Source: Squalus acanthias
Taxonomy: Eukaryota
Direction: 5' to 3'
DNA: 64,000 bases
Assembly (NCBI GenBank): GCA_030390025.1
Contig: CM059432.1
Span: 61,196,001-61,260,000, forward strand
Part shown: positions 7,693 through 64,000 of the stretch, piece by piece
How positions within the stretch are numbered: the first letter of the stretch is position 1
How the letters are laid out: each line of letters starts with the position of its first letter
The notes under the pieces: generated by a model
Databases searched by the model: none
Seen by the model: the letters and a program-made list of their open reading frames with translations, nothing else
Told to the model about the DNA's origin: nothing
Program-made: the position numbers and the translations under genes

Positions 7693-7700
7693 TACAGGCA

Positions 7701-8096
7701 GGAACAGCGGCTGCAGGGGTTGATTCAAATCCTGGATACTGGTAGGGACAGCGGCTGCAGGGGTTGATTCAAACCCTGGATACTGGCAGGGACAGCGTCT
7801 ACAGGGGTTGATTCAAACCCTGGATACTGGTAGGGACAGCGGCTGCAGGGGTTGATTCAAACCCTGGATACAGGCAGGGACAGCGGCTGCAGGGGTTGAT
7901 TCAAACCCTGGATACTGGTAGGGACAGCGGCTGCAGGGGTTGATTCAAACCCTGGATACTGGCAGGGACAGCGGCTGCAGGGGTTGATTCAAACCCTGGA
8001 TACTGGTAGGGACAGCGGCTGCAGGGGTTGATTCAAACCCTGGATACTGGCAGGGACAGCGGCTGCAGGGGTTGATTCAAACCCTGGATACTGGCA
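7701..8096. repeat. 44-bp minisatellite, 9 units, plus about 3 degenerate units at 7277-7395
   Basis: Unit GGGACAGCGGCTGCAGGGGTTGATTCAAACCCTGGATACTGGYA starts at 7701, 7745, 7789 ... 8053. Confidence 0.97.
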
Positions 8097-9107
8097 TGGA
8101 CAAAAAGGAATCCATCAGTCATCACAATCTTCAGCCTCAGATACAGTACGTACTTTGAACATTTTAAAGTGTGACATCAGGCTGTGTCCAATGTTTTAAG
8201 GTGCAAAAGGGCTTGGTACATTGAAGGCTGTCCGTTGTTCGTAATTTGTGAGCGTTTGTGGTTTTAGAGTGCCTCTTGTATATTTTATAATGCAAGTTAT
8301 TTGGGTCTGTCAATAATTGCCCATTTTGTGCAAGTGTTGGTTTTTTGGGAGTGTCCATTTATACAGGTTTCACTGTAGCATATAGTAGTCATGATGCACC
8401 AAGACGTAGCTACCAGCTACTTTGTTAAAGTGAAGGACATCTTCTATTCAGTTTTATTCAGTAGCACTGGCACTTGGGGGGCAAAAACTAAAAATCCACT
8501 GAAATGTCACTGCAAATCATGGACAGAAGATTAGGTTGCTGCGAGAATCAACTCTGTTCCAAATTACCACCAGTGGGAATATTATTCTGATTCAGTAATT
8601 AAAGAAGCCTCTAGGAAGTACTCAAAATATCATATCATTGTCAGACCCTTAAGAAAATGATGTTAGGCCCACCTCCCAATTCACAGGCCAGCTGTTGATT
8701 GAAAACAAACAAGCCTACAGTTACTGGGATAAGGTTCACAATACAATTTTTGCAAGGCTTCACATGAGTAACTTATTGAAGCCCAAGGAAGATTACCCTG
8801 TTAAATCATAGCAGTTATTTTTGCAAAAGAAAATTGTACATCTCTGTATGTGATGAAGGCCGCAGCTTTCGATTCAGTACTTGTTTATTTTATCAGATAT
8901 AATGAACAATGCTCCTCACTGGGGTTTGTATTACACTTTGAAAGTATCCTTGGGTTATATCTATACCTCTACTGTATAATTGACTGAAATAACAATTACA
9001 TTTTGGATATAAAAGCAAAACACTGCGGATGCTGGAAATCTGAAATAAAAACAGAAAATGATGAAAATACTCAGCAGGTCAGGCAGCATCTGTGGCGAGT
9101 GAAACAG

Positions 9108-9442: not shown

Positions 9443-12400
9443 AGACAGTAGCGGGAATGGTAGCATAATGGTAATGTCACTGGGCTAATAATCCAGAGGC
9501 CTGGACTAATGATCCAGAGATGTGAGTTCAAATCCCACCAGGGCAGCTGGGGAATTTAAATTCAGGTAAATAAATAAATCAGGAATAAAAAGCTAGTATC
9601 AGTAATGGTAACCATGAAACTATCGGATTGTCATAAAAACCCATCTGGTTCACTAATGTCCTTTAGGGAACGAAATCTGCCATCCTTACCTGGTCTGGCC
9701 TATATGTGACTCCAGACCCACAGCACTGTGTTTGACTCTTAACTGCCAATAAAATGGCCTAGCAAGCCACTTAGTTATTACGAAACACAATAATAAGAAT
9801 GAAACTGGACGGACCACCCGGCATCGACCTCGGCACCGGCTACGGACATGGCAACGGCACACCCAGCCCAGTCAATCCTGCAAAGTCCTCTCCACCAACA
9901 TCTGGGGACTTGTGCCAAAATTGGGAGAGCTGTCCAACAGACTAGTCAAGCAATAGTCATACTCACAGAATCATACCTTTCAGCCAATGTCCCAAACTCC
10001 TCCATCACCATCCCTGGGTATGTCCTGTCCCATCGGCAGGACAGACCCACCAGGGGTGGCGGTAGAGTTGGGAAGGAGTGGCCCTGGGAGTCCTCAACAT
10101 TGACTCTGGACCCCATGAAGTCTCATGGCTTCAGGTCAAGCATGGGCAAGGAAACCTCCTGCTGATTACCTCCCTCAGCTGATGAATCAGTACTCCTCCA
10201 TGTTGGACACCACTTGAAAGAAGCACTGAGAGTAGCAAGGGCACAGAATGCACAGGTGGGGGACTTCAATGTCCATCACCAAGAGTGGCTCAGTAGCATT
10301 ACAGCTGGCCAAGTCCTGAAGGACATAGCTGCCAATTTGGGCCTGCGACAGGTGGTGAGAGAACCAACATGAGGGGAAAAACCTACTTGACCTCGTCCTC
10401 ACCAATCTACCTGTGCAGATGCAGTAACCACCACACAGCCATTGTGGAGACTAAGTCACGTCTTCACACTGAGGACACCCTCCATCGTGTTGTGTAGCAC
10501 CACCACCGTGCCAAATGGGATAGATTCAGAACAGATCTAGCAGCTCAAAACTGGGCATCCATGAGGCACTGTGGGCCATCAGCAGCAGCAGAATTGTATT
10601 CCACCACAATCTGTAACCTCATGGCCCAACATATCCCTCACTCTACCATTACCATCAAGCCAGGGGATCAATAAGAAGTGTAGAAGAGCATGCCAGGAGC
10701 AGCACCAGGCGTACCTAAAAATGAGGTGCCAACCTGGGGAAATTGCACCACAGGACGACATGCATGCTAAAAAGCAAAAGCAGCATGCTATAGACAGGGC
10801 TAAGCGATCCCACAATCAACAGATCAGATCAAAGCCCTGCCACATCCAGTCGTGAATGGTGGTGGACCATTAAACAATTAATGGGAGGAGAAGGCTCCAT
10901 GAATATCCCCATCCTCAATGATGGTGGAGCCCAGCACATGAGTGCAAAAGACAAGGCTGAAGAGTTTGCAATCATCTTCAGCCAGAAGTGCCGAGTGGAT
11001 GATCCATATCGGCCTACTCCTGAGGTCCCCACCACCACAGAAGCCAGTCGTCAGCCAATTCGATTCACTCCATTTGATATCAAGAAACGGCTGGGCCCAC
11101 TGGATAGAGCAAAGGCTATTGGCCCCGACAACATCCCAGCTATCATGCTGAAGACTTGTGCTCCAGAACGAGCCTTGCCTCTAGCCAAGCTGTTCCAGTA
11201 CAGCTACAACACTGGCATCAATCCAACAATGTGGAAAACTGCCCAGTTAAGTCCTGTCCACAAAAAGCAGGACAAATCCAATCCAGCCAATTACCGCCCC
11301 ATCAGTCTACTCTCAATCATCAGCAAAGTGATGGAAGGTGTCATCGACAGTGCTACCAAGCGGCACCTGCTCACTAATGCCCAGTTTGGGTTCCGCCAAG
11401 ACCACTTGGCTCCCGACATCATTACAGCCTTGGTCCAAACATGGACAAAGGAGCTGAATTCCAGACATGAGATGAGAGTGGCAGCATTTGACCAAGTGTG
11501 GCATCAAGGAGCCCGAGTAAAACTGAAGTCAATGGGAATCGGGGGGAAAACTCTCCACTGGTTGGAGTCATACCTAGCACAAAGGAAGATGGTTGTGGTG
11601 GTTGAAGGTCAATCCTCAGGGCATCACTGCAGGAGTTCCTCAGGGAAGTGTCCTAAGCCCAACCATCTTCAGCTGCTACATCAATGATCTTCCCTCCAAC
11701 ATAAGATCAGAAATGGGGATGTTCGTTGATGACGGCACAGTGTTCAGTGCCATTCACAACTCCTCAGATAATGAAGCAGTCCATGCCCTTATGCAACAAG
11801 ACCTGGACGACGTTCAGGCTTGGGCTGATAAGTAGCAGGTAACATTCGCGCCAGGCAATGACTATATCCAACAAGCGAGAGTCTAACCACTGCCCCTTGA
11901 CATTCAATGGTATTACCATCGCTGAATCCCCCACCATCAACATCCTGGGGGTCACCATTGACCAGAAACTTATCTGGACCAGCCACATAAATACTGTGGC
12001 AACAAGAGCAGGTCAGAGGCTAGGTATTCTGCAGAGAGTGTCTCTTCTCCTGACTCCCCAAAGCCTTTCCACCAACAACAAGGCACTAGTCAGGAGTGTG
12101 ATGGAATACTCTTCACTTGCCTGGATGAGTGCAGCTCCAACAACACTCAAGAAGCTCAACACCATCCAGGACAAAGCAGCCCGCTTGATTGGCACCCCAT
12201 CCACCACCTTAAACATTCACGCCCTCCACCACCGGCGTACCGTGGCTGCAGTGTGTACCGTCTACAAGATGCACTGCAGCAACTCGCCAAGGCTTCTTCG
12301 GCAGCACCTCCCAAACCCGCGACCTCTTCCACCTAGAAGGACAAGGGCAGCAGGTGCATGGGAACAGCACCACCTCCAAGTTCCCCTCCAAGTCACACCC

Positions 12401-13682: not shown

Positions 13683-16322
13683 TGCTTGGGGCCCTGGACA
13701 GTGGGAAAGGAGGAGGCGCTTGCACGGGAAGGTGCCGTGGGAAGGGGAAGGGTTGTTGGGGGTGATTGAGGAGTGGACCAGGGTGTCGCAGAGGGAGCGG
13801 TACCTTCGTAATGCTGAAAGGGGAGGGGAAGATGTATTGGTGGTGGGAGGGGAAGAGGTGAGAGTAGAAGTGCAGGAAATAGAACGGACACAGTCGAGGG
13901 CCATGTCAACCACGGTGGAGGGGAATCTTCGGTTGAGGAAAAAGGAAGACATATCGGAAGCACTAGTATGGAAGGTGGCATCGTCAGAGTAGATGCGACG
14001 GAGACGAAGAAACTGGGAGAATGGAATAGAGTCCTTACAGGAAGCAAGGTGGGAGGAAGTGTAGTCCAGGTGGCTGTGGGAGTCAGTGGGCTTATAGTGA
14101 ATGTTTGTCAATAGCCTATCCCCATAAATGGAGAAAGAGAAGTCGAGGAAGGGAAAGGAAGAGACAGAAATGGACCATTTGAAGGTGAGGGAAGGGTGGA
14201 AACTGGAAGCAAAGTGAATGAAATTTTCTAGATCAGGGCAAGAGCAGGAAACGGCACCGAGACAGTCATCAATGTACCGGAAAAAGAGGTGAGGGAGGGG
14301 ATCTGAGAACAAAGAATGTTGCACATATCCCACGAAAAGGCAGGCATAGCTAGGACCCATGCGGGTTCCCATAGCAACACCTTTAATTTGGAGGAAGTGA
14401 GTGGAGTCAAAGGAGAAGTTGTTCAATGTGAGTATAAGTTCAGCGAGGCGGAGGGAGGGTGGTGGTGGATGGGGACTGGTTGGGCCTCTGTCCAAGGAAG
14501 AAGCGGAGCGCCCTCAGGCCATCCTGGTAGGGGATGGAGGCATCCTGGTAGGGGATGGAGGTGTAGAGGGATTGGACGTCCATAGTGAAAAGGAGACAGT
14601 TGGGGCCAGGAAACTGGAAACTGTTAAAGTGGTGGAGGGTGTCGGAAGAGTCGCGGATGTAGGTGGGAAGAGACTGAACAAGGGGACAAAAAATAGAGTC
14701 ACGATAGGAAGAAATCAGTTTGATGTGGCAAGAACAGGCTGAAATGATGGGTCTACCAGGGCAGTCCTGTTTGTGGATCTTGGGAAGGAGGTAGAAATAG
14801 GCTGTGCAGGGTTGGGAAACTATGAGGTTGGCAGCCGTGGAGGGAAGATCTCCAGAGCAGATGAGGTCAGTGACAGTCTTGGAAATGATGGCTTGATGTC
14901 CGGTAGTGCGGTCATGGTCCAGGGGGAGGTAGGAGGAGGCATCAGAGAGTTAGCGTTCAGCCTCCACAAGGTAGAGGTCGGTTCGCCAAACAACAATAGC
15001 GCCACCCTTGTCAGCAGGACATCAGCCGTCTCAATTTCTCTGCTCTTCTCCCTCACTCCAACCTACCTCCCTCTGAATTTGCAGCACTCAGTTCTCTCAG
15101 ATCCAACACCAGCATTGTCATTAAACCCGCTGACAAGGGTGGCGCCATTTCTGTCTCCATTTATGGCGATAGGCTATTGACAAACATTCACTATAAGCCC
15201 ACTGACACCCACAGCTACCTGAACTACACTTCCTCCCATCGCTTCCTGTAAGGACTCTATTCCATTCTCCCAGTTTCTCCGTCTCCGTCGCATCTGCTCT
15301 GATGATGCCACCTTCCATACTAGTGCTTCCGATATGTCTTCCTTTTACCTCAACCGAGGATTCCCTTCTACCGTGGTTGACATGGCCCTCAACTGTGACC
15401 GTTCTATTTCCCGCACTTCTGCTCTCACCCCTTTCCCTCCCTCCCAGAACCACGATAGGGTTCCCCTTGTCCTCACCTTTCACCCCACCAGCCTCCACAT
15501 TCAACGTACCATCCTCCGCCACCTCCAGTGTGATCCCACGACCAAACACATCTTCCCCTCCCCTCTCCTTTCAGCATTCCAAAGGGACCGCTCCCTCAGC
15601 GACACTCTGGTCTACTCCTCAATCACCCCCAACATCCCTTCCCCTTCTCACGGCACTTTCCCGTGCAAGCTCAGGAGATGCAACATCTGCCCTTTTACCT
15701 CCTCCCTTCCCACTGTCCACAGCCCCAAACACTCCTTCCAGGTGAAACAGCAATTGTACTTCCTACAATTTACTATACTGTATTTGCTGCTCACGATGCA
15801 GTCTCCTCTACATTGGGGATACCAAACGCAGATTGGTGACCACTTTGCGGAACACCTCCATTCAGTCCGTAAGCGTGACCCCGAGCTTCCGGTCGCCTGT
15901 CACTTTAATTCTCCGCTTCACTCCCACTCTGACCTCTCCGTCCTCGGCCTCTTACACTGTTCCAATGAAGCTCAACGTAAGCTCGAGGAACAGCACCTCA
16001 TCTTTCGATTAGGCACTTTACAGCCTTCTGGACTCAACATCGAGTTCAACAATTTCAGACCATAACCTCTGCCCCTATTTTTTTTTCACATGGCAACTGT
16101 TGATGATTCTGCCATTCCCATTTACACCTCATCTAGACTCATCTTTTGTTTCTTAACTTGTCCCATTACCATCTCTTTTTGCCCTACAACATCATCCCTT
16201 TTGTCTTTTAATCTCTCCTGCCTTCCATCCTATCACAGACCTTCCCTTTTGTTCTTTTCTCCCCTCCCCCTTTCCCTTCCCCTGCACTTGCTTAAAAATC
16301 TGTTACATCTCTAACTTTTTCC

Positions 16323-25502: not shown

Positions 25503-26014
25503 TGAGAAGTCGCACAACACCAGGTTATAGTCCAACAGATTTATTTAAAGTTACAAGCTTTCGGAGCTATCGCCCCTTCTTCAGGTAAAATTACAATGAG
25601 TGAATCTACAAAAGTTCACAGAATATAAACACAGAAACTGCAGAGATACAATCTTTCCTTACATCAAAGACACACCAAGAGCACAGCCAAGACAATGAGA
25701 TGTGTCCCAGGGGGTCCAACGTGTCAAAACCTGCTGTCTGCAGTGTTTTTTTGGGTTTGTTTTTTGTGGGGGGTTTTTTGTGTTTGTTTTTTAAAAACTG
25801 GAAAGACAGACAACGATGTCAAGTCACGTTCTGTAGCGTGACATGAACCCGATATCCCTATTGAGGCCGTCCTCATGAGTGCGGAACTTGGCTATCAGTT
25901 TCTGCTCGATGATTTTGCGTTGTTGTGTGTCTCGAAGGCCGCCTTGGAGAACGCTAACCCGCAGATCCGAGGCTGAATGCCCTTGACTGCTGAAGTGTTC
26001 CCCGACTGGGAGGC
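25503..26014 (-). mobile_element. Penelope-like family P2 3' fragment with 12-bp TSD
   Basis: GIY-YIG C-terminus LPVGEHFSSQGHSASDLRVSVLQGG...EQKLIAKFRTHEDGLNRD; TSD AACTTTCTTTTA at 25491-25502 and 26015-26026. Confidence 0.88.
25551..25588 (-). ncRNA. Minimal type I hammerhead ribozyme motif (P2), intact core
   Basis: Minus strand reads TTAC-CTGAAGA-A-GGGGC-GATA-GCTCC-GAAA-GC-TT-GTAA. Confidence 0.8.
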
Positions 26015-26299
26015 AACTTTCTTTTAGGCCTCAGTCTAAACATCAGAATCTTAGGAGTGCTTATAGCCCTTTAAAATGCCTGGCGTTGCAGTGGCAGTTC
26101 TGCTGCATCACCACTAGGATTTTAGAACCGAGACCTGACAGACTCCTTCTTAGCAGCAGGAATCCTGCCGGGAGCCCACCATGCATATCAAATGACGCCC
26201 AACACAGGGCAATGGATCAGGGTTGAGGTGGATTTGGTGAGGCAGGTAGAAGTCCTGCCTTGCTGGAACGCTGCTCCAAAGAGGAGAATCTAGCATTAT

Positions 26300-35394: not shown

Positions 35395-36740
35395 CAATAA
35401 TAATAATCAAGGAAAAAATTAACGGGCACTTGGAGAGGTTTAAGCTAATTAAGGAGAGCCAACATGGATTTGTAAAAAGCAGATCATGTTTGACTAATCT
35501 AATTGAATTTTTTGATGAAGTAACAGGGAAGAATGATGAAGGAATCCAATGGATGTTGTCTACATGGATTTTAGGAAGGCGTTTGACAAAGTACCACATA
35601 GAAGGCTGGTTAACAAAATTGAGGCTCATGCAATAGGTGGGTCAGTGGCAGTTTGGATAAGGAATTGGCTTAAGGACAGAAAACAGCGAGTTGTGGTAAA
35701 TGGCTGTTTTTCAGACTGGACGATGGTAGACAGTGGTGTTCCCCAAGGGTCAGTGCTGGGGCCACTGCTTTTTTTGATATATATAAATGACCTGGATATT
35801 GGAACACAGTAGAATTTCTAAATTTGCCGATGACACCAAACTTGGGGGTGTGGCAAACAGTGAGGATGATACCAATCGACTGCTGCAGGACATAGAAAGG
35901 CTAGCAGAATGGGCAGACAAGTGGCAGATGGAATTTAATACAGAGAACAGTGAGGTGATGCATTTTGGCAGAAGGAACAGGGAGAGGCAATATACACTTA
36001 ATGGCACAGTTTTAAAGAGTGTGCAGGGACAGAGGGACCTGGGAGTTAATGTGCATAGGTCCCTGAAGGTGGCAGGACATATTGAGAGAGTGGTTAGCAA
36101 AGCATATGGGATCTTGGCCTTCATAAATAGAGGTATTGAGTACAAAAGTAGAGAAGTTATGCTGAACCTTTATAAAGCGCTGGTTAGGCCACAACTGGAG
36201 TATTGCGTCCAGTTCTGGTCACCACACTTTAGGAAGGATGTGAAGGCCCTTGAGAGGGTGCAGAGGAGATTTACCAGAATGGTTCCGGGGATGGGGGAAC
36301 TTAGCTACAAGGACAGGTTGGAGAAGCTGGATTTGTTTTCATTAGAGCAAAGGAGGTTGAGGGGTGATTTGATAGAGGTTTACAAGATTAAGACGGGTTT
36401 GGATAGGCTAGACGGGGAAAGGCTGTTCCCACTAGTTGATGGTACAAGGACTAGGGAACACACAGATTTAAGGTTTTGGGCAAGAGATACAGGGGGATGG
36501 GAGGGAAAACTTTTTTACGCAGTGAGTGGTGAGGACCTGGAACCACCTGCTGACGGAAGTGGTGGAAACGGAGACACTCAATGTTTTCAAGGGGAGACTG
36601 GATAGGCACTTGAGGGAAATAAACTTGCAAGGCTACGGGGATAGAGCGGGGGAATGGGACTGACTGGATTGCTCCACAGAGAGCTGGCACAGACTCGATG
36701 GGCCGAATGGCCGCCTTCTGTGCCATTATAACTCTATGGC
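35395..36740 (+). mobile_element. CR1 RT/3' fragment nested in Penelope
   Basis: [13 protein letters not shown] and a CR1 3' UTR. Confidence 0.9.
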
Positions 36741-38979
36741 TCTATTACTTTCCTCTGACCACATCCCTCCTTCCAATCTCACCCTTTATCGTGTTTTCAC
36801 TATCCCCTCTGACCTTCCCCTCTCTGAACCCGAATGATCAGACCTCAGCAATGGCCTCAGCTTCATCCCTTACGCCCCCCCACCTCAACGAATTTCGAGC
36901 TCGACGAGATGCTGAGCTCTTCTTCCATCACCTTCGTCTCCGCACCCACTTCTTTGTCCAGACGTCTGCCCCCCGCACAGTGGACCCTTTCTCCCGTCTT
37001 CAGAACTCTCGTTCCACCTGGACCTCTCCCTCTGGCCTCTTACCTTCTCTTGATCTTTTCATTGGGAACTCAATTATTCTGCTCCCCTCACTCACTCTAA
37101 CTTACCTCCCTCTGAACTTGCAGCACTCCGTTCTCTCAAGTCTAACCCTGACACTGTCATTAAACCTGCTAACAAGGGCGGTGCTGGTATTGTTTGACGA
37201 ACAGATCTCTACCTGGTGGAGGCTGAACACCAACTTTCCGACACCTCCTCCTACCTCCCCCTGAACCACGACTCCACCACCGAACATCAAGCCATGGTTT
37301 CCCAGACTGTCACTGACCTCATCTCCTCAGGAGATCTTCCCCGCATAACCTCCAACTTCACAGTCCCGCAACCCCACACAACCCGCTTCTACCTCCATCC
37401 CAAGATCCACAAACCGGCCTGCCTGGAAGACCCATCATTTCAGCTTGTTCTTGCTCCACCGGAACATTTTTCTTCCTATCTCGACTCTATTTTTCTCCCC
37501 TTGTCCAGTCTCTCCCGACCTACATCCGCAACTCTTCTGACGCCCTCCGCCACTTTAACAGTTTGCAGTTTCCTGGCTCTAACCGTCTCCTTTTTACTAT
37601 GGACGACTGGTCCCTCTATACGTCCAACTCCCACCAGGACAGCCTGGAGGTCCTCCGCTTCTTCCTAGAAAGGAGATCCAACCAGTCCGCATTCACCACC
37701 CTCCTCTGCCTGGCTGAACTGATTATTACATTGAAAAACTTCTCATTTGACTCCACTCATTTCCTATAAATTAAAGGCATCACTATGGGAACACATAAGA
37801 GTCCAGCTACGTCTGCCTTTTTGTGGGATACGTGGAACATTCTTTGTTTCAGTCCTGCTCAGGTCCACTCCCTCACCTCTTTTTCCAGTACATTGATGAC
37901 TGTATCAGTGCCGTTTCATGCTCTCGCCCTGAACTAGAAAATGCCATCAACTTTACTTCCAATTTCCACTCCTCCCTTGCCTTCACATAGTCCATCTCCG
38001 TCTCTTCCCTTCCTTTCCTCGACTTCTCTGTCTCCATTTCTGGAGATAGGCTATCGACCAATATCTACTATAAGCCTACCGACTCCCACAGCTACCTTGA
38101 TCACACTTCCTCCAACCCAGTTTCCTGTAAGGACTCTATTCCATTCTACCAGTTTCTCCGTCACATCTGTTTTGACCTTGCCACCTTCCATACCAGAGCT
38201 TCCAATATGTCTTCCTTTTTCCTCAACCGAGGATTCCCCTCCACTGTGGTTGACAAGGCCCTCGACCGTGTCCATCCCATTTCCCACACTTCTTCCCTCA
38301 CTCCTTTGCCTCCCTCCCAGAACCACGATAGAGTCCCCCTTATCCTCACCCTCTACCCCACCAGCCTCCACAATCAACGGATCATCCTCCACCACTTCCA
38401 CGACCTCCAGCGCGATGCCACCACCAAACAAATCTTTCCCTCCCCTTTCAGCATTTCGACGGGACCGCTCCCTCTGCGACACCCTGATCTACTCTTCCAT
38501 CACCCCCAACACTGGTTCCCCTATCCCACGGCACCGTTCTGTGCAAACACAGGAGATGTAAAACCTGCGCTTTCACCTCCTCCCTTCCCACCATCCAGGG
38601 TCCCAAACACTGCTTCCAGGTGAAACAGCGATTTAGTCGCACTTCTTTCAATTAGTATACTGTATTCGCTGCTCACAATGCAGTCTCCTCTACATTCTCC
38701 GTCCCACTCTAACCTCTCTGTCCTCGGCCTCTTACACTGTTCCAATGAAGCTCAGAGGAAGCTCAATGAACAGCACCTCATTTTCGATTAGGCACTTTAC
38801 AACTTTCCAGACTCAACATTGATTTTAATAACTTCATATACATAACCACTGCTCCCATTTTTTCGGACAGCAGGTGCTGGTAATGGTTCTGCAGTTGACA
38901 TTTGCAGCTCCTCCATCCCCCATCATTAGTTTCTTTACTTATCCCATTACTATCCCTTTTGCCTTGCACCATCACCCTT

Positions 38980-44992: not shown

Positions 44993-45556
44993 GAACATAA
45001 GAACATAAGAAATAGGAGCAGGAGTAGGCCATTCAATGAGATCATGGCTGATCTTCTGCCTCAACTCCATTCACCGGCCCTATCGCCATATCCCTTGATG
45101 TCCTTACTAGTCAGAAATCTATCGACTTCTGCTTTGAATATACCCAATGACTGAGCCTCCACAGCCCTCTGGAATAGAGAATTCCAAAGATTCACTACCC
45201 TCTGTGTGAAGAAATGTCTTCTCATCTCAGTCCTGAATGGCCTACCCTTTATCTTGAGGCTGCGGCCCCTGGTTCTAGACTCCCCAGCTAAGGGAAACAT
45301 TCTCCCAGCATCCATCCTATCAAGCCCTGTAATAATTTTGTATGCTTCAATGAGATCCCCTCTCATTCTTCTGAATTCAAGAGAATACAGGCCTAGTTTA
45401 CTCAATCTCTTCTCATACGACAGTCCCGCCATCCCAGGAATCAATCTCGTGAACCTTCGTCGCACTCCCTCTATGGCAAGTATATCCTTCCTTAGGTAAG
45501 GAGACCAAAATTGTACACAGTACTCCAGGTGTGGTCTCACCAAGGCCCTATATAAT

Positions 45557-45776
45557 TGGACAAATGTGAGAAGTCGCACAACAGCAGGTTATAGTCCAAC
45601 AGGTTTATTTGAAATCACAAGCTTTCGGAGCGCTGCTCCTTCGTCACTTCACCTGACGAAGGAGCAGCGCTCCGAAAGCTTGTGATTTCAAATAAACCTG
45701 TTGGACTATAACCTGGTGTTGTGCGACTTCTCACATTTGTCCACCCCAGTCCAACACCGTCATCTCCACATCATGA
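45557..45776. mobile_element. Mini Penelope P2 hairpin insertion
   Basis: 90-bp inverted arms 45557-45646 / 45654-45743 (one mismatch) plus a tail; TSD CTATATAATTGGA at 45548-45560 and 45777-45789. Confidence 0.92.
45649..45685 (+). ncRNA. Minimal type I hammerhead ribozyme motif (P2), intact
   Basis: TCAC-CTGACGA-A-GGAGC-AGC-GCTCC-GAAA-GC-TT-GTGA, with palindromic AAGCTT in place of stem III. Confidence 0.85.
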
Positions 45777-48700
45777 CTATATAATTGGAGTAAGACTTCT
45801 TTACTCCTGTACTCAAATCCTCTTGTAATGAAGGCCAGCATACCATTTGCCTTCCTAATGGCTTGCTGCACCTGCACATTCACTTTCAGTGACTCATGTA
45901 CAAGGACACCCAGGGCCCTTTGAGCATCTGCATTCCCCAATCTTTCACCATTTAGGAAATACTCTGCCTTTCTGTTTTTTCTACCAAAGTGGATAACTTC
46001 ATATTTATCCACATTATATTCCATCTGCCATGTTCTCAGCCACTCACTGTGCCTGTCGAGATCCCCTTGAAGCCTCTTCACATCCTCTTTGCAACTGACA
46101 CGGCCACCTAGCTTTGTATCATCAGCAAATTTGGAAATGTTACATTTAGTCCCCTCATCCAAGTCATTGATATAGATTGTGAATAGCTGGGACCCAAGCA
46201 CCGATCCTTGCGGTACCCCACTAGTCACAGCCTGCCATCCTGAAAAAGACCCGTTTATCCCTACTCTTTGTTTTCTGTCTGTTAACCAATTCTCAATCCA
46301 TGCTAGTATATTACCCCCAATTCCATGTGCCCTAATTTTGTTCACCAACCTCTTGTGTGGGACCTTATCGAAGGCCTTCTGAAAATCCAGATACACCACA
46401 TCTACCAGTTCCCCTTTGTCTACTCCACTAGTTACATCCTCAAAGATCTCCAATAGGTTTGTCAAACAGGATTTCCCTTTCATAAATCCATGTTGACTCT
46501 GCCCAAACTTGCTATTAGTTTCTAAGTGCCCAGTTATTGCATCCTTTATAATAGATTCCAGCGTTTTCCCAACTACTGCTATGAGGCTAATAGGTCTGTA
46601 GTTCCCCGTTTTCTCTCTCCCTCCTTTCTTAAATAGCAAGGTTACATTTGCTATCCTCCAATCTGCAGGAACCATTCCAGAATCCTTAGAATTTTGGAAG
46701 ATGACAACCAATGCGTCCACTTCCAATGGCCACCTCTTTCAAAACCCTAGGATGTAGGTCATCCGGTCCTTGGGATTTATCGACTTTTAGTCCCATTAAT
46801 TTTGCTAGTACTGTTTTTTTACTAATAGTAATTTCTTTAAGTTCCTCATTCTCGCCACACCCTTGGTTTTCTCGTATTTCTGGGAGGTTTTTTGTGTCTT
46901 CCTCCGTGAAGACAGAAACAAAGTATTTATTTAATTTCTTGGCCATTTACTCATTCCCCATTATAAATTCTCCCGTCTCTGACTATAAAGGACCTACATT
47001 TGCCTTCGCCAGTCTTTTCCTTTTCACATACCTTTGGAAGCTTTTACAATCCGTTTTTATATTTTTTGCTAGTTTGTGCTCATATTCCATTTTCCCTTTC
47101 TTTATCAATTTCTTGGTCCCCCTTTGCTGATTTCTAAAAAGATCCCAATCCTCAGGCTGACCGCTTTTTCTGGCAACTTTATAAGCTTCTTCCATTGACT
47201 TAATACTAGCTTTCATTTCTTTTGTTAGCCATGGTTGGATCACTTTTCCTTTTGTGTTTTTGTGCCCTAGAGGAATATATGTTTGTTGCAAATTATGCAT
47301 TATTTCCTTGAATGTTAGCCATTGTATGTCCACCTTCATACCTTTTAGTGTAGTCTCCCAATCTACCATGGCCAACTTGTCCCTCATACCCTTGTAGTTT
47401 CCTCTATTTAGATTGAAGACCTTAGTTTCAGATTGGACTACATCACTCTCAAACTTAATCTAAAATTCAATCATATTATGGTCACTTGTCCCTAAAGGCC
47501 CCTTTACCACAAGATTATTGATTAGCCCTTTCTCATTACACAGTACCAGATCCAGAATAGCCTGTTCCCTGGTTGGTTTCTCCACATACTGATCCAGGAA
47601 ACCATCTCGCATGCATTCCAAGAATTCGTCCTCCACACCATTAGTGGTAATTTGATTTGCCCAGTCAATATGTAGATTAAAGTCCCCCATGATTACTGTA
47701 TTGCCCTTGTTACATTCACTTCTAATCTCTTTATTGATACTGTGCCCTAAATTACCATTACTGTTTGGTGGCCTATACACAACTCCCACCAATGTTTTCC
47801 GCCCTTTGCTGTTTCTTAGCTCCACCCAAACTGATTCCAGTTCTACATCACGATCTGCCAAGCCACGACATCATATTCCCAAGTGGCTATTTATGCCTGC
47901 AGCTCACCAACCTTGTTTGCTATGCTTCGTGTGTTTCCATACATACACTGTAAACCTATCTTAGACCATCCTGTGTTCTCTCTTAGTCTGACCCCACCTA
48001 ATACCTTATTATTTCTTGCTTTAGTGCTATCTGTCTCTCCCAATCCTTTGTGCCCTTTGTTTCTAATGCTACATCCTGGTGCCCATCCCCCTGCCAACTT
48101 AGTTTAAACCCTCCCCAACAGCACTAGCAAATCTCCCTGTGAGGATATTGGTCCCGGCTCTGTTGAAGTGCAACCCGTCCGGCCTGTACAGGTCCCACCT
48201 CCCCTAGAACCGGCCCCAATGCCCCAGGAATCTGAAGCCCTCCCTCCTGCACCATATCTCCATCCATGCATTCATCTGCTCTATCCTCCTATTTCTATAC
48301 TCACTCGGGCATGGCACCAGGAGTAATCCGGAGATTACTGCCTTTGAGGTCCTGCTTTTTAATCTCTTTCCTAGCTCCCTAAAATTTGCCTGCAGGGCCT
48401 CACCCCTCTTTCTACCTATGTCGTTAATACCAATATGGACCACGACCTCTGGCTGTTCACCCTCCCCCTCAGAATGTTAGTGCTGTTTCACTGCTTCCTT
48501 GTCAGTTTGGTATTGAATTAAGCTGTTGCACAGTCATTTAAAGGTTGTTTAGTATCAGGAGTGTTGTGGCTACAGCAATTAGTTACATTTATTCTCACAA
48601 CATATCAAAGTGCTACACTTGGTTACATTAATGGGGGCTGTACTGGCAGTCGACCTCGCCCTCCAGGATCTATGGCCGAGGGAGCGGAGGCAGCGAGAAA

Positions 48701-57861: not shown

Positions 57862-59553
57862 AATGCAACTGGGTCCACCTTCCCAAGAATCTCCATATTC
57901 CAAGCCTTTTTGGACATCAAAGTTGTGCAGGGCAGAACAAGCTACCACTGTGCAGGATACATGTTCTGGGGCATATTGCAGAGCCCCTCCAGATCTAACA
58001 AAGCAGCAAAAGCACTCTTAAGACACCCATAGTTCCCTGAATTACCACTCTTGTAGAAATAGGTCATGTTATCATATTCCTCAGCTGCTAATCTTGCTCA
58101 CAGAGGGGCCCTGATCCATGGTTCATTTTGTCACCTACAAGCCATCTGGTTACTTTGCATTCTTCCTTGAAAATATCAGGGAGAGCAGAATTCCTTAGGA
58201 TAAATGCATCATGGCAACTTCCAGCAAATGAGGAACTGGCATACAGAATTCTTTGCATTTGGTCACCCATGATCTGTATATTCAGCAAGTGAAAGCCTTT
58301 TCTATTCAAAATGTTAGGGTATTCCTGTAAGAATTTGCAATGCTAGAGGAGTGCCATCTATTTCACCCTGCACTTTGGGGAACTCTGTCTTTATCATGCT
58401 GCTGCCTGCTATTCATACCAAACTGAATGAATTCTCCTGCTCTCCTAAGAATGGTGTCAGTGCCTTGACGAATAGAGCCACAGACAGCACCCTGAGCAAT
58501 ATTACGCAGGTTGTCTACGGCTACTTGAAATGAATCAAAGGCATAAAAGTTGAGTAAAAATTGAGAGGTCGCACAACACCAGGTTATAGTCCAACAGTTT
58601 TATTTTAAATCACAAGCTTTCGGAGTTAAAACTCCTTCAAGGAGTTTTAACTCCGAAAGCTTGTGATTTAAAATAAAACTGTTGGACTATAACCTGGTGT
58701 TGTGCGACCTCTCAATTTTGTCCACCCCAGTCCAACACCGGCATCTCCGCATCATAAAAGTTGAGTGCCATTGTAGCTTTCACTGCCACAGGCAGAGCCG
58801 CCGAGGCAGTTAATCTTGGCTGCAGGTCTTTATGCGAAAGATAGTTTTCTACAGTCTATTTGGTAGCAAGCACTCTTCTCAGACAGAGCTCCTTACTAAG
58901 GACCTGTGTGGTTGGCGAATTCTTTTGGTGGGGAAGGTGGGGGTGGTAATATTTTGTGCAGTGCATCCTCTTCAAATGCTGCCTTACCCTCCTTTTCTTC
59001 ATCCTATAATAATCCTCCTCCATTAAAATAGCAAACAAGGGAATACCCATTGGGAATCCCATAACTCAGAACCTCTTACTTTGTTGGGGTGGATAATTTT
59101 CCTGGTGGTCTCACAAGCCCTCAGGTCACCAGAGGCAGTGTCAGTTCTCTTAAGGTGTACAGCAAAAACATTTTCTCCAAATCCTCCCTTGTAAGCCCAG
59201 CAATTACTTTCTAAAGTTTCTCCAGGCTCCAAAGTAAAGCACTTCCACCACTATTAGCTTATGCTGGCAACAGATATGCCTCTTTTATCTCGTTGTGAAT
59301 AACCCTTGGTGTAATGGTGCGGTAATCACAGGATTTGGGAACTCCTATGCCATTCCAAATCACAAATACATTCTAATGAACTCCCAGCAGCACAAGCATA
59401 CACACTTATCAGAAGGCCCAGACCAAAATGGAAATGGCAGCACACCTTAAATGGGAATTAAGCTGTCTTAAATGGGATTCTCCCCAATTTGTAGGCCTCA
59501 AACTCCATTCAAGCACCATAGAATCACTGAAAAAGTCAAGCAAATTCAGGGCC
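57862..59553 (-). pseudogene. PIF/Harbinger element with decayed HARBI1-like transposase (coding ~59062 to 57862)
   Basis: ELCLRR, LPVAVKATMALNFY, NRKGFHLLNIQ, GSCHDAFILRNS, LVGDK, RSGGALQYAPEHVS..VVACSALHN. Candidate TIR GGCCCTGAATTTGC at 59540-59553. Confidence 0.85.
58556..58752. mobile_element. Mini Penelope P2 perfect hairpin insertion
   Basis: 81-bp perfect arms 58557-58637 / 58639-58719 plus a tail; TSD CATAAAAGTTGAGT at 58542-58555 and 58753-58766. Confidence 0.92.
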
Positions 59554-62362: not shown

Positions 62363-63391
62363 GATTTAAACTCAGATTTAAATCCATCATCTGCTTTGAA
62401 AGTGGACCTAATTACATTAATACTAAAACATGTTGTGAATTATGGGTGACTAGACTTTTGACATTTAAGTCTTTTGGACATTTCCCAGTATTTTTATAGA
62501 GCTACATCTAAGCCTACTTATATTATGTATGTACTCTCGGATGTCTGCAGTAGAGTTTGGCTACAAATAAGGAAAATTAGTATTCCACTATACATCTGCT
62601 CTATAGATTCAATACGTTATGCAAGAGGCTAAGGAACAGGTAAATGAAATAGAAACTGTAGAAAGGAACTCAATTTAGGGAAATGAAGGAGGATGGAAAT
62701 CATCCACAAGTTATAATCCCTGCCATTGCATCCATATAGCAGACACTGCTAAATTTGATCTATGTTTGATATCATTAACATTGAAACTATGGGACAATGT
62801 CCTTAGAATGCTGGAAAGATGGTTAAGGAGATCTGTGCCTGTATCGAGGTCTCAATTAAACACTCAGGCCTCCTAGGGGGCACATTTCTCTAGAAACACC
62901 TAGTTTGACTGTGCGATGAAGATACAAGTGCAGAGGTGAGGAGAAGCCTTTACCACACTACACAATCAAAGAGCATGTTTGAAGTTATCTGTGGACATTG
63001 ATTTTAATAGTTCTGACCAGGTATTGCATTAATCTAGAGATAAATGGGCTGGGGCAGGAGAGAAAATTGGGGCTGGAATTAAAATTATAGACTTGACAGG
63101 TATAAATATTTTATATATCCATCATATTTTTAAGATTGGTAGCTCCTGTTAACTTTCCATTGAAAAGTTCTATGTCAACAGTCCCGATGGGGTTTTCAAT
63201 GTAATTTTATCCACACCTATGTTGTTACATCGAGTGATGCCTGCCCTGTCATGCTTTTCTCTCTGATGCTGGAATACTTTAAGAACTGTTTTCAGTCCAC
63301 ACGCAGTTGCAGGCTTTGGCCACCAAGTGTTACTGTAGAGCATTCTTTGTTTTGTCAAGGTTAATTGTAACCTCCACCTTGGTTTTCTATA

Positions 63392-64000
63392 GTGCGAAGT
63401 CGCACAACACCAGGTTATAGTCCAACAGTTTTATTTGAAATCACAAGCTTTTGGAGCTGCTGCCCCTTCGTCAGGTGAAGTGAAGGAATACGAATCAGCA
63501 AAGCATATATAGACAGAGAACCATGCCTGTGTAGCGTACAATGTCAGACGACTAGTTAATCTTTCTGACTGCCTTTTATCACACCTCGGCAGAGAAATAA
63601 TCAGGGTCAGTCAGGAAGGCATTATATCAAAGACATAGCAAGATACAACTAAGACAATGAGGTGGGGTCACAGGGGGTCTAATGTGTCAAATGCAGTCTG
63701 TATGGAAAACCATAAACTTTAAAATTTTTACTTTTATTTTTACTGGAAATCACATCTGTGAACAAGCCAACGACGACTCAAGTCTGGATGACTCTACGTC
63801 ATGTAGCGTGACATGAACCCAAGATCCCGGTTGAGGCCGTCCTCATGGGTGCGGAACTTGGCCAAGTTCCGCACCCATGAGGACGGCCTCAACCGGGATC
63901 TTAGGTTCATGTCACGCTACATGACGTAGAGTCATCCAGACTTGAGTCGTCGTTGGCTTGTTCACAGATGTGATTTCCAGTAAAAAAAAGTAAAAATTTT
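63392..64000. mobile_element. Penelope P2 head-to-head palindromic insertion, running off the window
   Basis: Minus copy 63392-63861; plus copy from 63862 with (A)KFRTHEDGLNRDLRFMSRYMT*. Hammerhead at 63441-63478 (-) with GAAA mutated to AAAA. Confidence 0.9.

Follow-up and report, generated by a model that had tools for sequence, protein, structure and literature searches.

The insertion at positions 45548..45789 of the window (the whole stretch of 64,000 nucleotides of Squalus acanthias DNA analysed here) raises the question of whether a protein-free hairpin with a hammerhead ribozyme sequence is a mobile element in its own right or a by-product of the integration of a larger retroelement. 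The original prediction, made from the sequence alone, offered both readings: the smallest product of the integration of a Penelope-like element (PLE), or a non-autonomous element mobilised in trans. Judged by its sequence, the insertion is a 5'-truncated, head-to-head insertion of a PLE of Neptune/Nematis type, a type assigned by the linker motif of the parent.

The predicted anatomy, consisting of 90-bp arms, a 7-nt spacer, a one-sided tail of about 33 nt, a 13-bp TSD and a split CR1 ORF2, is borne out by the coordinates (Table 1). The tail lies on the right side of the hairpin, and no other inverted repeat longer than 16 nt was found within 44.5-47 kb. The target is the C-terminal part of ORF2 of a CR1-type LINE, on the minus strand; a Pfam RVT_1 match (E 9e-31) covers the upstream part of this frame. 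The insertion splits the frame, which stops at ...LLQLY on one side and resumes at QLYRALV... on the other, the duplicated 13 bp coding for the identical three residues on both flanks. The interrupted copy also carries further stops and frameshifts. Two CR1 paralogues in the window run uninterrupted across the insertion point, and contigs from all four of the public runs compared skip exactly 229 nt there, with 10-13 ambiguous letters; the sides of these joints are shorter than 31 nt, and the contigs may represent paralogues rather than a true empty allele. The assembly comprises 3.7 Gb in 3,882 contigs.

Table 1. Features of the hairpin insertion and of its relatives in the window (leader positions relative to hammerhead C3)
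Feature	Position	Strand	Basis
Left TSD copy, 13 bp, in CR1-type ORF2 (ORF on minus strand)	45548..45560	+	direct repeat; joints skipping 229 nt
Short tail-less arm, PLE leader +1 to ~+86; outer 4 nt in common with TSD; without C3 and stem I, so incomplete hammerhead	45557..45646	-	arm comparison, fold
Inverted arms, 90 nt each, 1 mismatch (~99% alike)	45557-45646 / 45654-45743
Insert proper, 216 nt; left arm overlaps TSD by 4 nt	45561-45776
Head-to-head junction with 7-nt loop; 45646 = A at -7, putative transcription start	45644..45653	+	junction analysis
Loop of the hairpin, 7 nt	45647-45653
Long arm, PLE leader from -7 on	45646..45743	+	identity to L013 and L248
Minimal type I hammerhead sequence	45649..45685	+	read against the features described in PMC4209133; fold; Rfam none
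Hammerhead stem I	45649-52/45682-85	+
Hammerhead core (C3 = 45653)	45653-59	+
Extra A of hammerhead	45660	+
Hammerhead stem II	45661-65/45669-73	+
Hammerhead GAAA	45674-77	+
Hammerhead AGCU	45677-80	+
Predicted hammerhead cut, after U	45681	+
One-sided tail, unpaired, 33 nt; end = ATG opening the ORF in the full-length copy	45744..45776	+	comparison with L248
Right TSD copy, 13 bp, exact	45777..45789	+	direct repeat
Further hairpin, shorter, from a sister subfamily; insert 197 nt, TSD 14 bp	58542..58766	+	sequence comparison
Long version of the same layout, ~980 nt, 13-bp TSD; extends to window-equivalent 64381	63378..64000	+

The parent of the insertion can be traced through longer copies. 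The long arm is 96% identical to a terminus (L013) that lies there after the C-terminus of a GIY-YIG domain, and 89% identical to both pLTRs of a near-complete sister copy (L248), which is arranged as leader, 848-aa frame, 3' UTR and leader. This frame, which breaks near its end, contains a reverse transcriptase (RT; Pfam RVT_1, E 2e-9), a C-x4-C-x2-C linker and a GIY-YIG region recognised by eye, to which Pfam gave no match on the frame. It opens at the ATG where the tail of the insertion ends, so that arm and tail together form the leader preceding the ORF, and the insertion is this leader placed twice, head to head. The hallmarks of an endonuclease-bearing PLE are all present: an ORF with RT plus GIY-YIG at its C-terminus (L248, together with L013 and L023, in which a 95-96%-identical terminus is joined to the GIY-YIG C-terminus); two direct leaders flanking the ORF as pLTRs, with an inverted ORF copy upstream (L248); and a one-sided tail of 30-40 bp with a TSD, here 33 nt and 13 bp. 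An inverted truncated copy with a 30-40-bp tail and a TSD is the published PLE layout (PMC8557442, PMC3846280). According to PMC8557442, a CX2-5CxxC zinc-finger linker between RT and EN defines Neptune and Nematis and is absent from Penelope and Poseidon, and the linker of the sister copy thus points to the former type. The identities to these copies, together with the inverted arm and its tail, support the first of the two predicted readings, a product of PLE integration.

The window holds other products of this kind. The second hairpin, 13 kb from the first, folds inside stem II without the catalytic core and is shorter, which contradicts the prediction that the insertion at 45548..45789 is the smallest product. 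In the copy of about 980 nt, the arms hold the GIY-YIG C-terminus, the 3' UTR and the leader, and the upstream TCA that had been proposed as a microhomology is present in the copy at 63392-63483. At the insertion itself, the junction overlap would amount to 3 nt (TCA) only if the right arm came from a read-through RNA, and to 1 nt if the start is 45646. RT fragments at 13.9-15.8 and 36.7-38.4 kb of the window share no more than 24-37% identity with the parent-type ORF and therefore belong to another family.

The plus arm contains every feature of metazoan minimal hammerheads as described in PMC4209133: the core boxes, stems I and II, the extra base at 9/10.1 and a palindromic stem III. The predicted minimal type I motif is thus present in sequence, its active palindrome being the 4-mer AGCU rather than the longer one proposed, while the description "intact ribozyme" reaches beyond what sequence can tell. 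Rfam returned no hammerhead at E<=1 over the whole window, and only one weak tRNA-like match. An isolated 45-mer is predicted to form stems I and II. For the hairpin transcript, the predicted fold has -172.3 kcal/mol and forcing the hammerhead costs +54.6 kcal/mol, and the opposite strand has a hammerhead without C3 and stem I; the prediction is accordingly that the antisense arm silences the ribozyme. A predicted dimer co-fold, uninformative on activity, shows swapped stem II pairing instead of a stem III duplex. Metazoan minimal hammerheads cleave weakly and only as multimers (PMC4209133; dimer cleavage also in PMC6765202), and the anole PLE hammerhead is described as protein-dependent and dispensable for insertion (PMC11167929). 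The stub also lacks the TATA region, and it is most likely inert. Cleavage by the hammerhead in vivo was considered as a source of arm ends and rejected, there being no clear peak at the cut site (+29), where about 8 of 100 ends counted by eye fall, 5 of them via microhomology.

Genomic copies show how such hairpins arise. Many of the best 30 genomic matches are built alike, their spacers ranging from 2 nt to about 900 nt. The exact tail 32-mer has 32,808 matches in the genome; minimal hairpins account for 10 of the first 30. A search for loops of 0-30 nt at the same core returned 3,684 short hairpins, of which 192 (5%) carry the exact junction of 45548..45789; among the 50 listed, the 7-nt loop type occurs once and the 2-nt loop nine times. 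A sample of 96 was taken from the start of contig C1, limited to short loops; junction typing excluded 12 hairpins whose cut falls inside stem II. Among the copies retrieved, one locus occurs under two handles (L033 = L104), and some adjacent loci may be segmental duplicates. The 84 typed hairpins fall into 52 junction types, with microhomology at 43 joins, blunt ends at 17 and added bases at 24. The original prediction had proposed tabulating fold-back points, many copies with one junction indicating a self-propagating family and scattered junctions independent events. The tabulated junctions are scattered as the second case supposes, and the shared one does not imply a family: the 192 copies reflect recurrent joining at a short overlap, and since microhomology makes this junction recur, the proposed rule would have been misleading. 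Additionally, of 30 copies with this junction, 18 carry the tail on the loop side, 10 carry it on the opposite side and 2 have none. A unit copied as such would keep one polarity, so a tail on either side argues against a self-propagating family. Each stub was probably assembled afresh from two separate copies of the 5' part of the element's RNA; the one at 45548..45789 is likely a dead end, and likely the product of a single integration event.

Among 110 hairpins with a tail, the outer end of the short arm falls at +80..+86 in 81 and that of the tail arm at +119..+123 in 93; in 87, the longest exact TSD measures 11-15 nt. Arm starts are confined to two fixed points, separated by about 38 nt. 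These two end points and the TSD length match the two RT start sites and the nicking and extension of both strands observed in vitro for the anole PLE (PMC11167929). We consider it likely that the stub is the leader of an endonuclease-bearing PLE, placed head to head in one event by two-ended priming, run-off from capped RNA and end joining, often with two RNAs. The GIY-YIG nuclease would nick both strands 12-13 nt apart. Each 3' end would then prime reverse transcription at one of two internal start sites, leaving a one-sided tail, and each cDNA would run off the capped 5' end of its RNA at the A that precedes the hammerhead by 7 nt, the cap frequently being copied as one more base. Both cDNA 3' ends would then be trimmed and end-joined with 0-5 nt of microhomology, the cDNAs often deriving from different RNA molecules. 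The hammerhead would ride along as the first thing in the transcript. The steps of cap copying and of two RNAs rest on relatives rather than on the insertion at 45548..45789, whose arms are 99% alike, both with the uncommon C at subfamily site B, and whose right arm starts at the -7 A (45646) without an extra G.

The inner ends of the arms may mark a transcription start. Among 192 arm ends, 32 lie at -7, 27 at -6, 23 at -4 and only 8 at -8, with 25 in all upstream of -7. The -7 A sits in an initiator-like motif (the initiator consensus is YYANWYY), and in 50 of 75 matches, whose loci overlap, a TATATA precedes that A by exactly 30 nt. We infer that the edge at this A is the transcription start site. 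A TATA and TCACT pair has been noted in a rotifer PLE pLTR (PMC3846280), and a TATA-less internal promoter is described instead for a Drosophila element (PMC2377424). An intron ending at -7 was ruled out, no AG acceptor preceding that point. None of the runs recorded as RNA contains the element, and the only raw-read RNA run, with 0 reads, does not count as a test of the start. Contigs of two runs, guessed to be RNA, cover the element; such contigs cannot show starts.

The base before this edge is often a G that resembles a copied cap. In long copies, position -8 is C or T; matches with neither native base there number 4,265, and G was counted by eye in 58 of the first 100. In all 19 loci followed, element sequence upstream of the -8 G is absent, which rules out a subfamily with a native G at this position (0/19 continue upstream). 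The partner arm can supply a G at -8, and symmetrical joins with two bases between complete arms were therefore examined (80 loci, 50 listed). Among the 50 listed, an untemplated G stands at -8 in 26, and on both arms in 5 (counted by eye); across their 100 ends, where neither arm supplies the base, G outnumbers T by 31 to 11. On the other side of the balance, in the parsed set, from which C and T at -8 are excluded by construction, G is found in 25 of 29, many readable as a partner-arm base, and the 8 unambiguous cases comprise 7 G and 1 A. Elsewhere, added bases are G in 13 of 40, or in 13 of 23 when only G and A are considered, and G is also the commonest neighbour base (59/139). At full-length L1 junctions, an additional G derived from the cap is reported (PMC11702581).

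The arms of one hairpin may differ in subfamily. At site B, 9,147 hairpins divide into 3,073 G/G, 5,450 A/A and 624 mixed, the mixed class being 6.8% and only 15% of the value for random pairing; at the base next to it, this change was found a single time. This control may undercount: arms mismatch at 28 of 2,320 positions, with A/G differences at 4, and mutation alone probably accounts for tens of cases, far below 624. The loop II length allele differs between the arms in 12 of 59 hairpins unselected for discordance, where random pairing expects 29.5%, and in some hairpins (L094, L113) the arms are unlike at three linked sites. The simplest source of mixed arms is a pair of molecules, since both arms stop near the RNA's inferred 5' end; a single tandem transcript with its two pLTRs, or gene conversion at a later time, could also account for them.

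These observations bear on the self-priming proposed for head-to-head PLE palindromes by Arkhipova et al. 2013 (PMC3846280), in which a single cDNA or antisense RNA would snap back at a short palindrome and copy its own second arm. Such fold-back would suit the nearly identical arms at 45548..45789 with their uncommon shared allele, the 8,523 of 9,147 hairpins concordant at site B, and longer hairpins (L150, L157) that fold at the TATA palindrome. However, it cannot yield arms of mixed subfamily, as seen at site B and loop II, an untemplated G on both arms, bases added at the junction (24/84) or, for one and the same junction, tails on both sides (18 versus 10), and we regard it as unlikely. 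The cap-like G and the mixed arms, as far as sequence can speak, favour run-off from two RNAs over published self-priming.

Two-ended priming could also be true with neither capped run-off nor a second RNA, if the arm differences were later gene conversion and the extra G a terminal addition or partner base. Long palindromes are prone to breakage, more than 30,000 copies could serve as donors, and G is the commonest neighbour elsewhere too. Yet conversion within 90 bp would be needed in about 20% of hairpins, the edge at -7 coincides with the TATA and initiator spacing, and G prevails over T in the listed joins where neither arm supplies the base, which makes this account quite improbable. A self-propagating, protein-free ribozyme hairpin, retrozyme- or SINE-like and copied as a unit by PLE protein, finds some encouragement in the 192 exact junctions and in known trans-mobilisation of pLTRs and non-autonomous PLE derivatives (PMC3846280, PMC8557442, 10.64898/2026.07.22.740005), but it lacks a TATA region and tandem same-strand units, its ribozyme is predicted to be masked, its junction makes up a small share of short hairpins with the tail on either side, and its tail arms fall into 12 haplotype classes among 26 (4 of the 30 loci, without an anchor, were left out of the allele counts), shared by other copies, so that the trans-mobilised element of the original prediction, which should have one junction, a fixed polarity and common descent, is largely refuted and very unlikely.

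A wider possibility is one that we hold to be evenly balanced: PLE integration may be a two-RNA reaction, in which two RNPs act on one staggered cut, each starts internally about 90 or 130 nt from the capped 5' end, and each produces a short run-off cDNA, the two being joined. These cDNAs would be comparable to retroviral strong-stop DNA, and the hairpin stubs would be a fossil record of the start site and the cap. As a further, speculative step, the run-off DNA might jump to the 3' end set by the hammerhead via the 36-nt repeat between start and cut; if so, the ribozyme would have a job. The stub population matters beyond a single insertion because the origin of inverted PLE ends is stated to be unresolved in PMC8557442 and PMC11167929, the published genomic model being self-priming on a single template (PMC3846280). 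Thousands of stubs provide countable signatures, namely a sharp 5' edge, a cap-like G and mixed-subfamily arms, which favour two sense-strand RNAs. An existing in vitro PLE system could test the two-RNA model directly. No report of a cap-like G or of two-template arms in PLEs was found in the literature covered, a scope outside which lie subscription papers such as Arkhipova 2006, Repbase and Dfam notes and supplements, so that an earlier report may exist. In genome annotation, hairpins of this kind belong with PLE ends and should not be classed as MITEs or retrozymes.

Comparison with known systems places the insertion at 45548..45789 as an ordinary PLE stub of published layout. Non-LTR retrozymes, as described in 10.64898/2026.07.22.740005, are likewise protein-free, carry a type I hammerhead and are kin to PLE pLTRs; they are head-to-tail tandems with at least two same-strand ribozymes, whereas here a dispersed head-to-head pair holds one complete motif. 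The metazoan PLE minimal hammerheads of PMC4209133 share the extra 9/10.1 base, G10.1-C11.1, the palindromic 15.2-16.2 and a 4-bp stem I, and dual motifs on opposite strands, 100-700 bp apart, are already recorded there; the motif in the window, known from its sequence, differs in a U at the cleavage site and a 5-bp stem II. L1 twin priming, in the account of PMC11702581, also primes both target ends, joins ends by microhomology, and shows the cap G and two-RNA inserts in opposite orientation. Its twin-primed segments are adjacent, non-overlapping parts of one RNA, while both arms here repeat the same segment, the starts are fixed and internal, and two-template cases look common rather than rare.

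Among PLEs, the anole Poseidon PAc (PMC11167929) resembles the present case in having two internal RT starts that bound the tail, nicking and extension of both strands at AT-rich DNA, and a hammerhead near the pLTR-ORF junction, which in PAc is dispensable for insertion. In PAc, however, hammerhead stem II is where the ORF begins, and the RT starts lie inside the ORF, whereas here the ATG is the end of the tail; and Poseidon, as characterised in PMC8557442, is without the CX2-5CxxC linker that the parent has. Another close counterpart is the endonuclease-bearing PLE Pen2a_Av (PMC3846280; PMC8557442), whose head-to-head arms differ in length by about 37 bp and which shares the TSD, a tail that is optional, and TATA with TCACT. 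For this element PMC3846280 favours self-priming on an antisense template; the stubs described here differ from it in lacking an ORF, in occurring in thousands, and in having arm ends that mark an initiator-like A with a frequent extra G.

Among the 19 loci with the cap-like G at position -8, counted from hammerhead C3, 13 carry T at -9, including L236, L237, L242 and L245, and this T is untemplated in several of the loci with G at -8. The combination of T at -9 and G at -8 would be the product of cap copying together with one extra A added to the cDNA.

Further head-to-head copies of Penelope-like elements (PLEs) lie in the window, together with more distant relatives and other repeats (see table). 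The second, shorter hairpin folds within stem II and lacks the catalytic core, and the copy of about 980 nt has a near-perfect palindromic centre located in the GIY-YIG C-terminus. Two hairpin loci, L206 and L209, have a foreign flank in common directly after the same arm position, which suggests another element inserting at a fixed point within the arm. Two further hairpins, L083 and L084 (G000 C1:7559895-7564142), stand in opposite orientation 1.2 kb apart and were joined at the same rarely used point, the cut site of the hammerhead; the pair is possibly a local inverted duplication.

PLE copies and other repeats, in window coordinates unless a locus is named
Feature	Position	Strand	TSD	Remark
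Second hairpin	58542-58766		14 bp	shorter; sister subfamily
Head-to-head PLE copy	63378-64000 (L091:879-1882)		13 bp	~980 nt
PLE, near-complete	L248:2588-5854 (G000 C1)			
PLE fragment	25503-26024	minus		more distant subfamily
PLE fragments	13905-15868; 36710-38446			another, distant family
Tandem array	7693-8102			period 88 nt
tRNA-like match	9460-9539			weak, under Rfam threshold; probably head of a tRNA-derived SINE

The near-complete copy, inserted into a CR1-type LINE, possesses two identical leaders and an 848-aa frame broken close to its end, and an inverted long ORF copy lies upstream of it. The minus-strand fragment comprises the GIY-YIG C-terminus, the 3' UTR and a leader without the tail. 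The distant-family fragments occur as inverted pieces; their protein sequences are 24-37% identical to that of the frame in L248.

Among the matches listed, stem II and loop II of the hammerhead vary widely between subfamilies. Since pairing is kept despite this variation, the sequences hint that the hammerhead fold is under selection in active elements.
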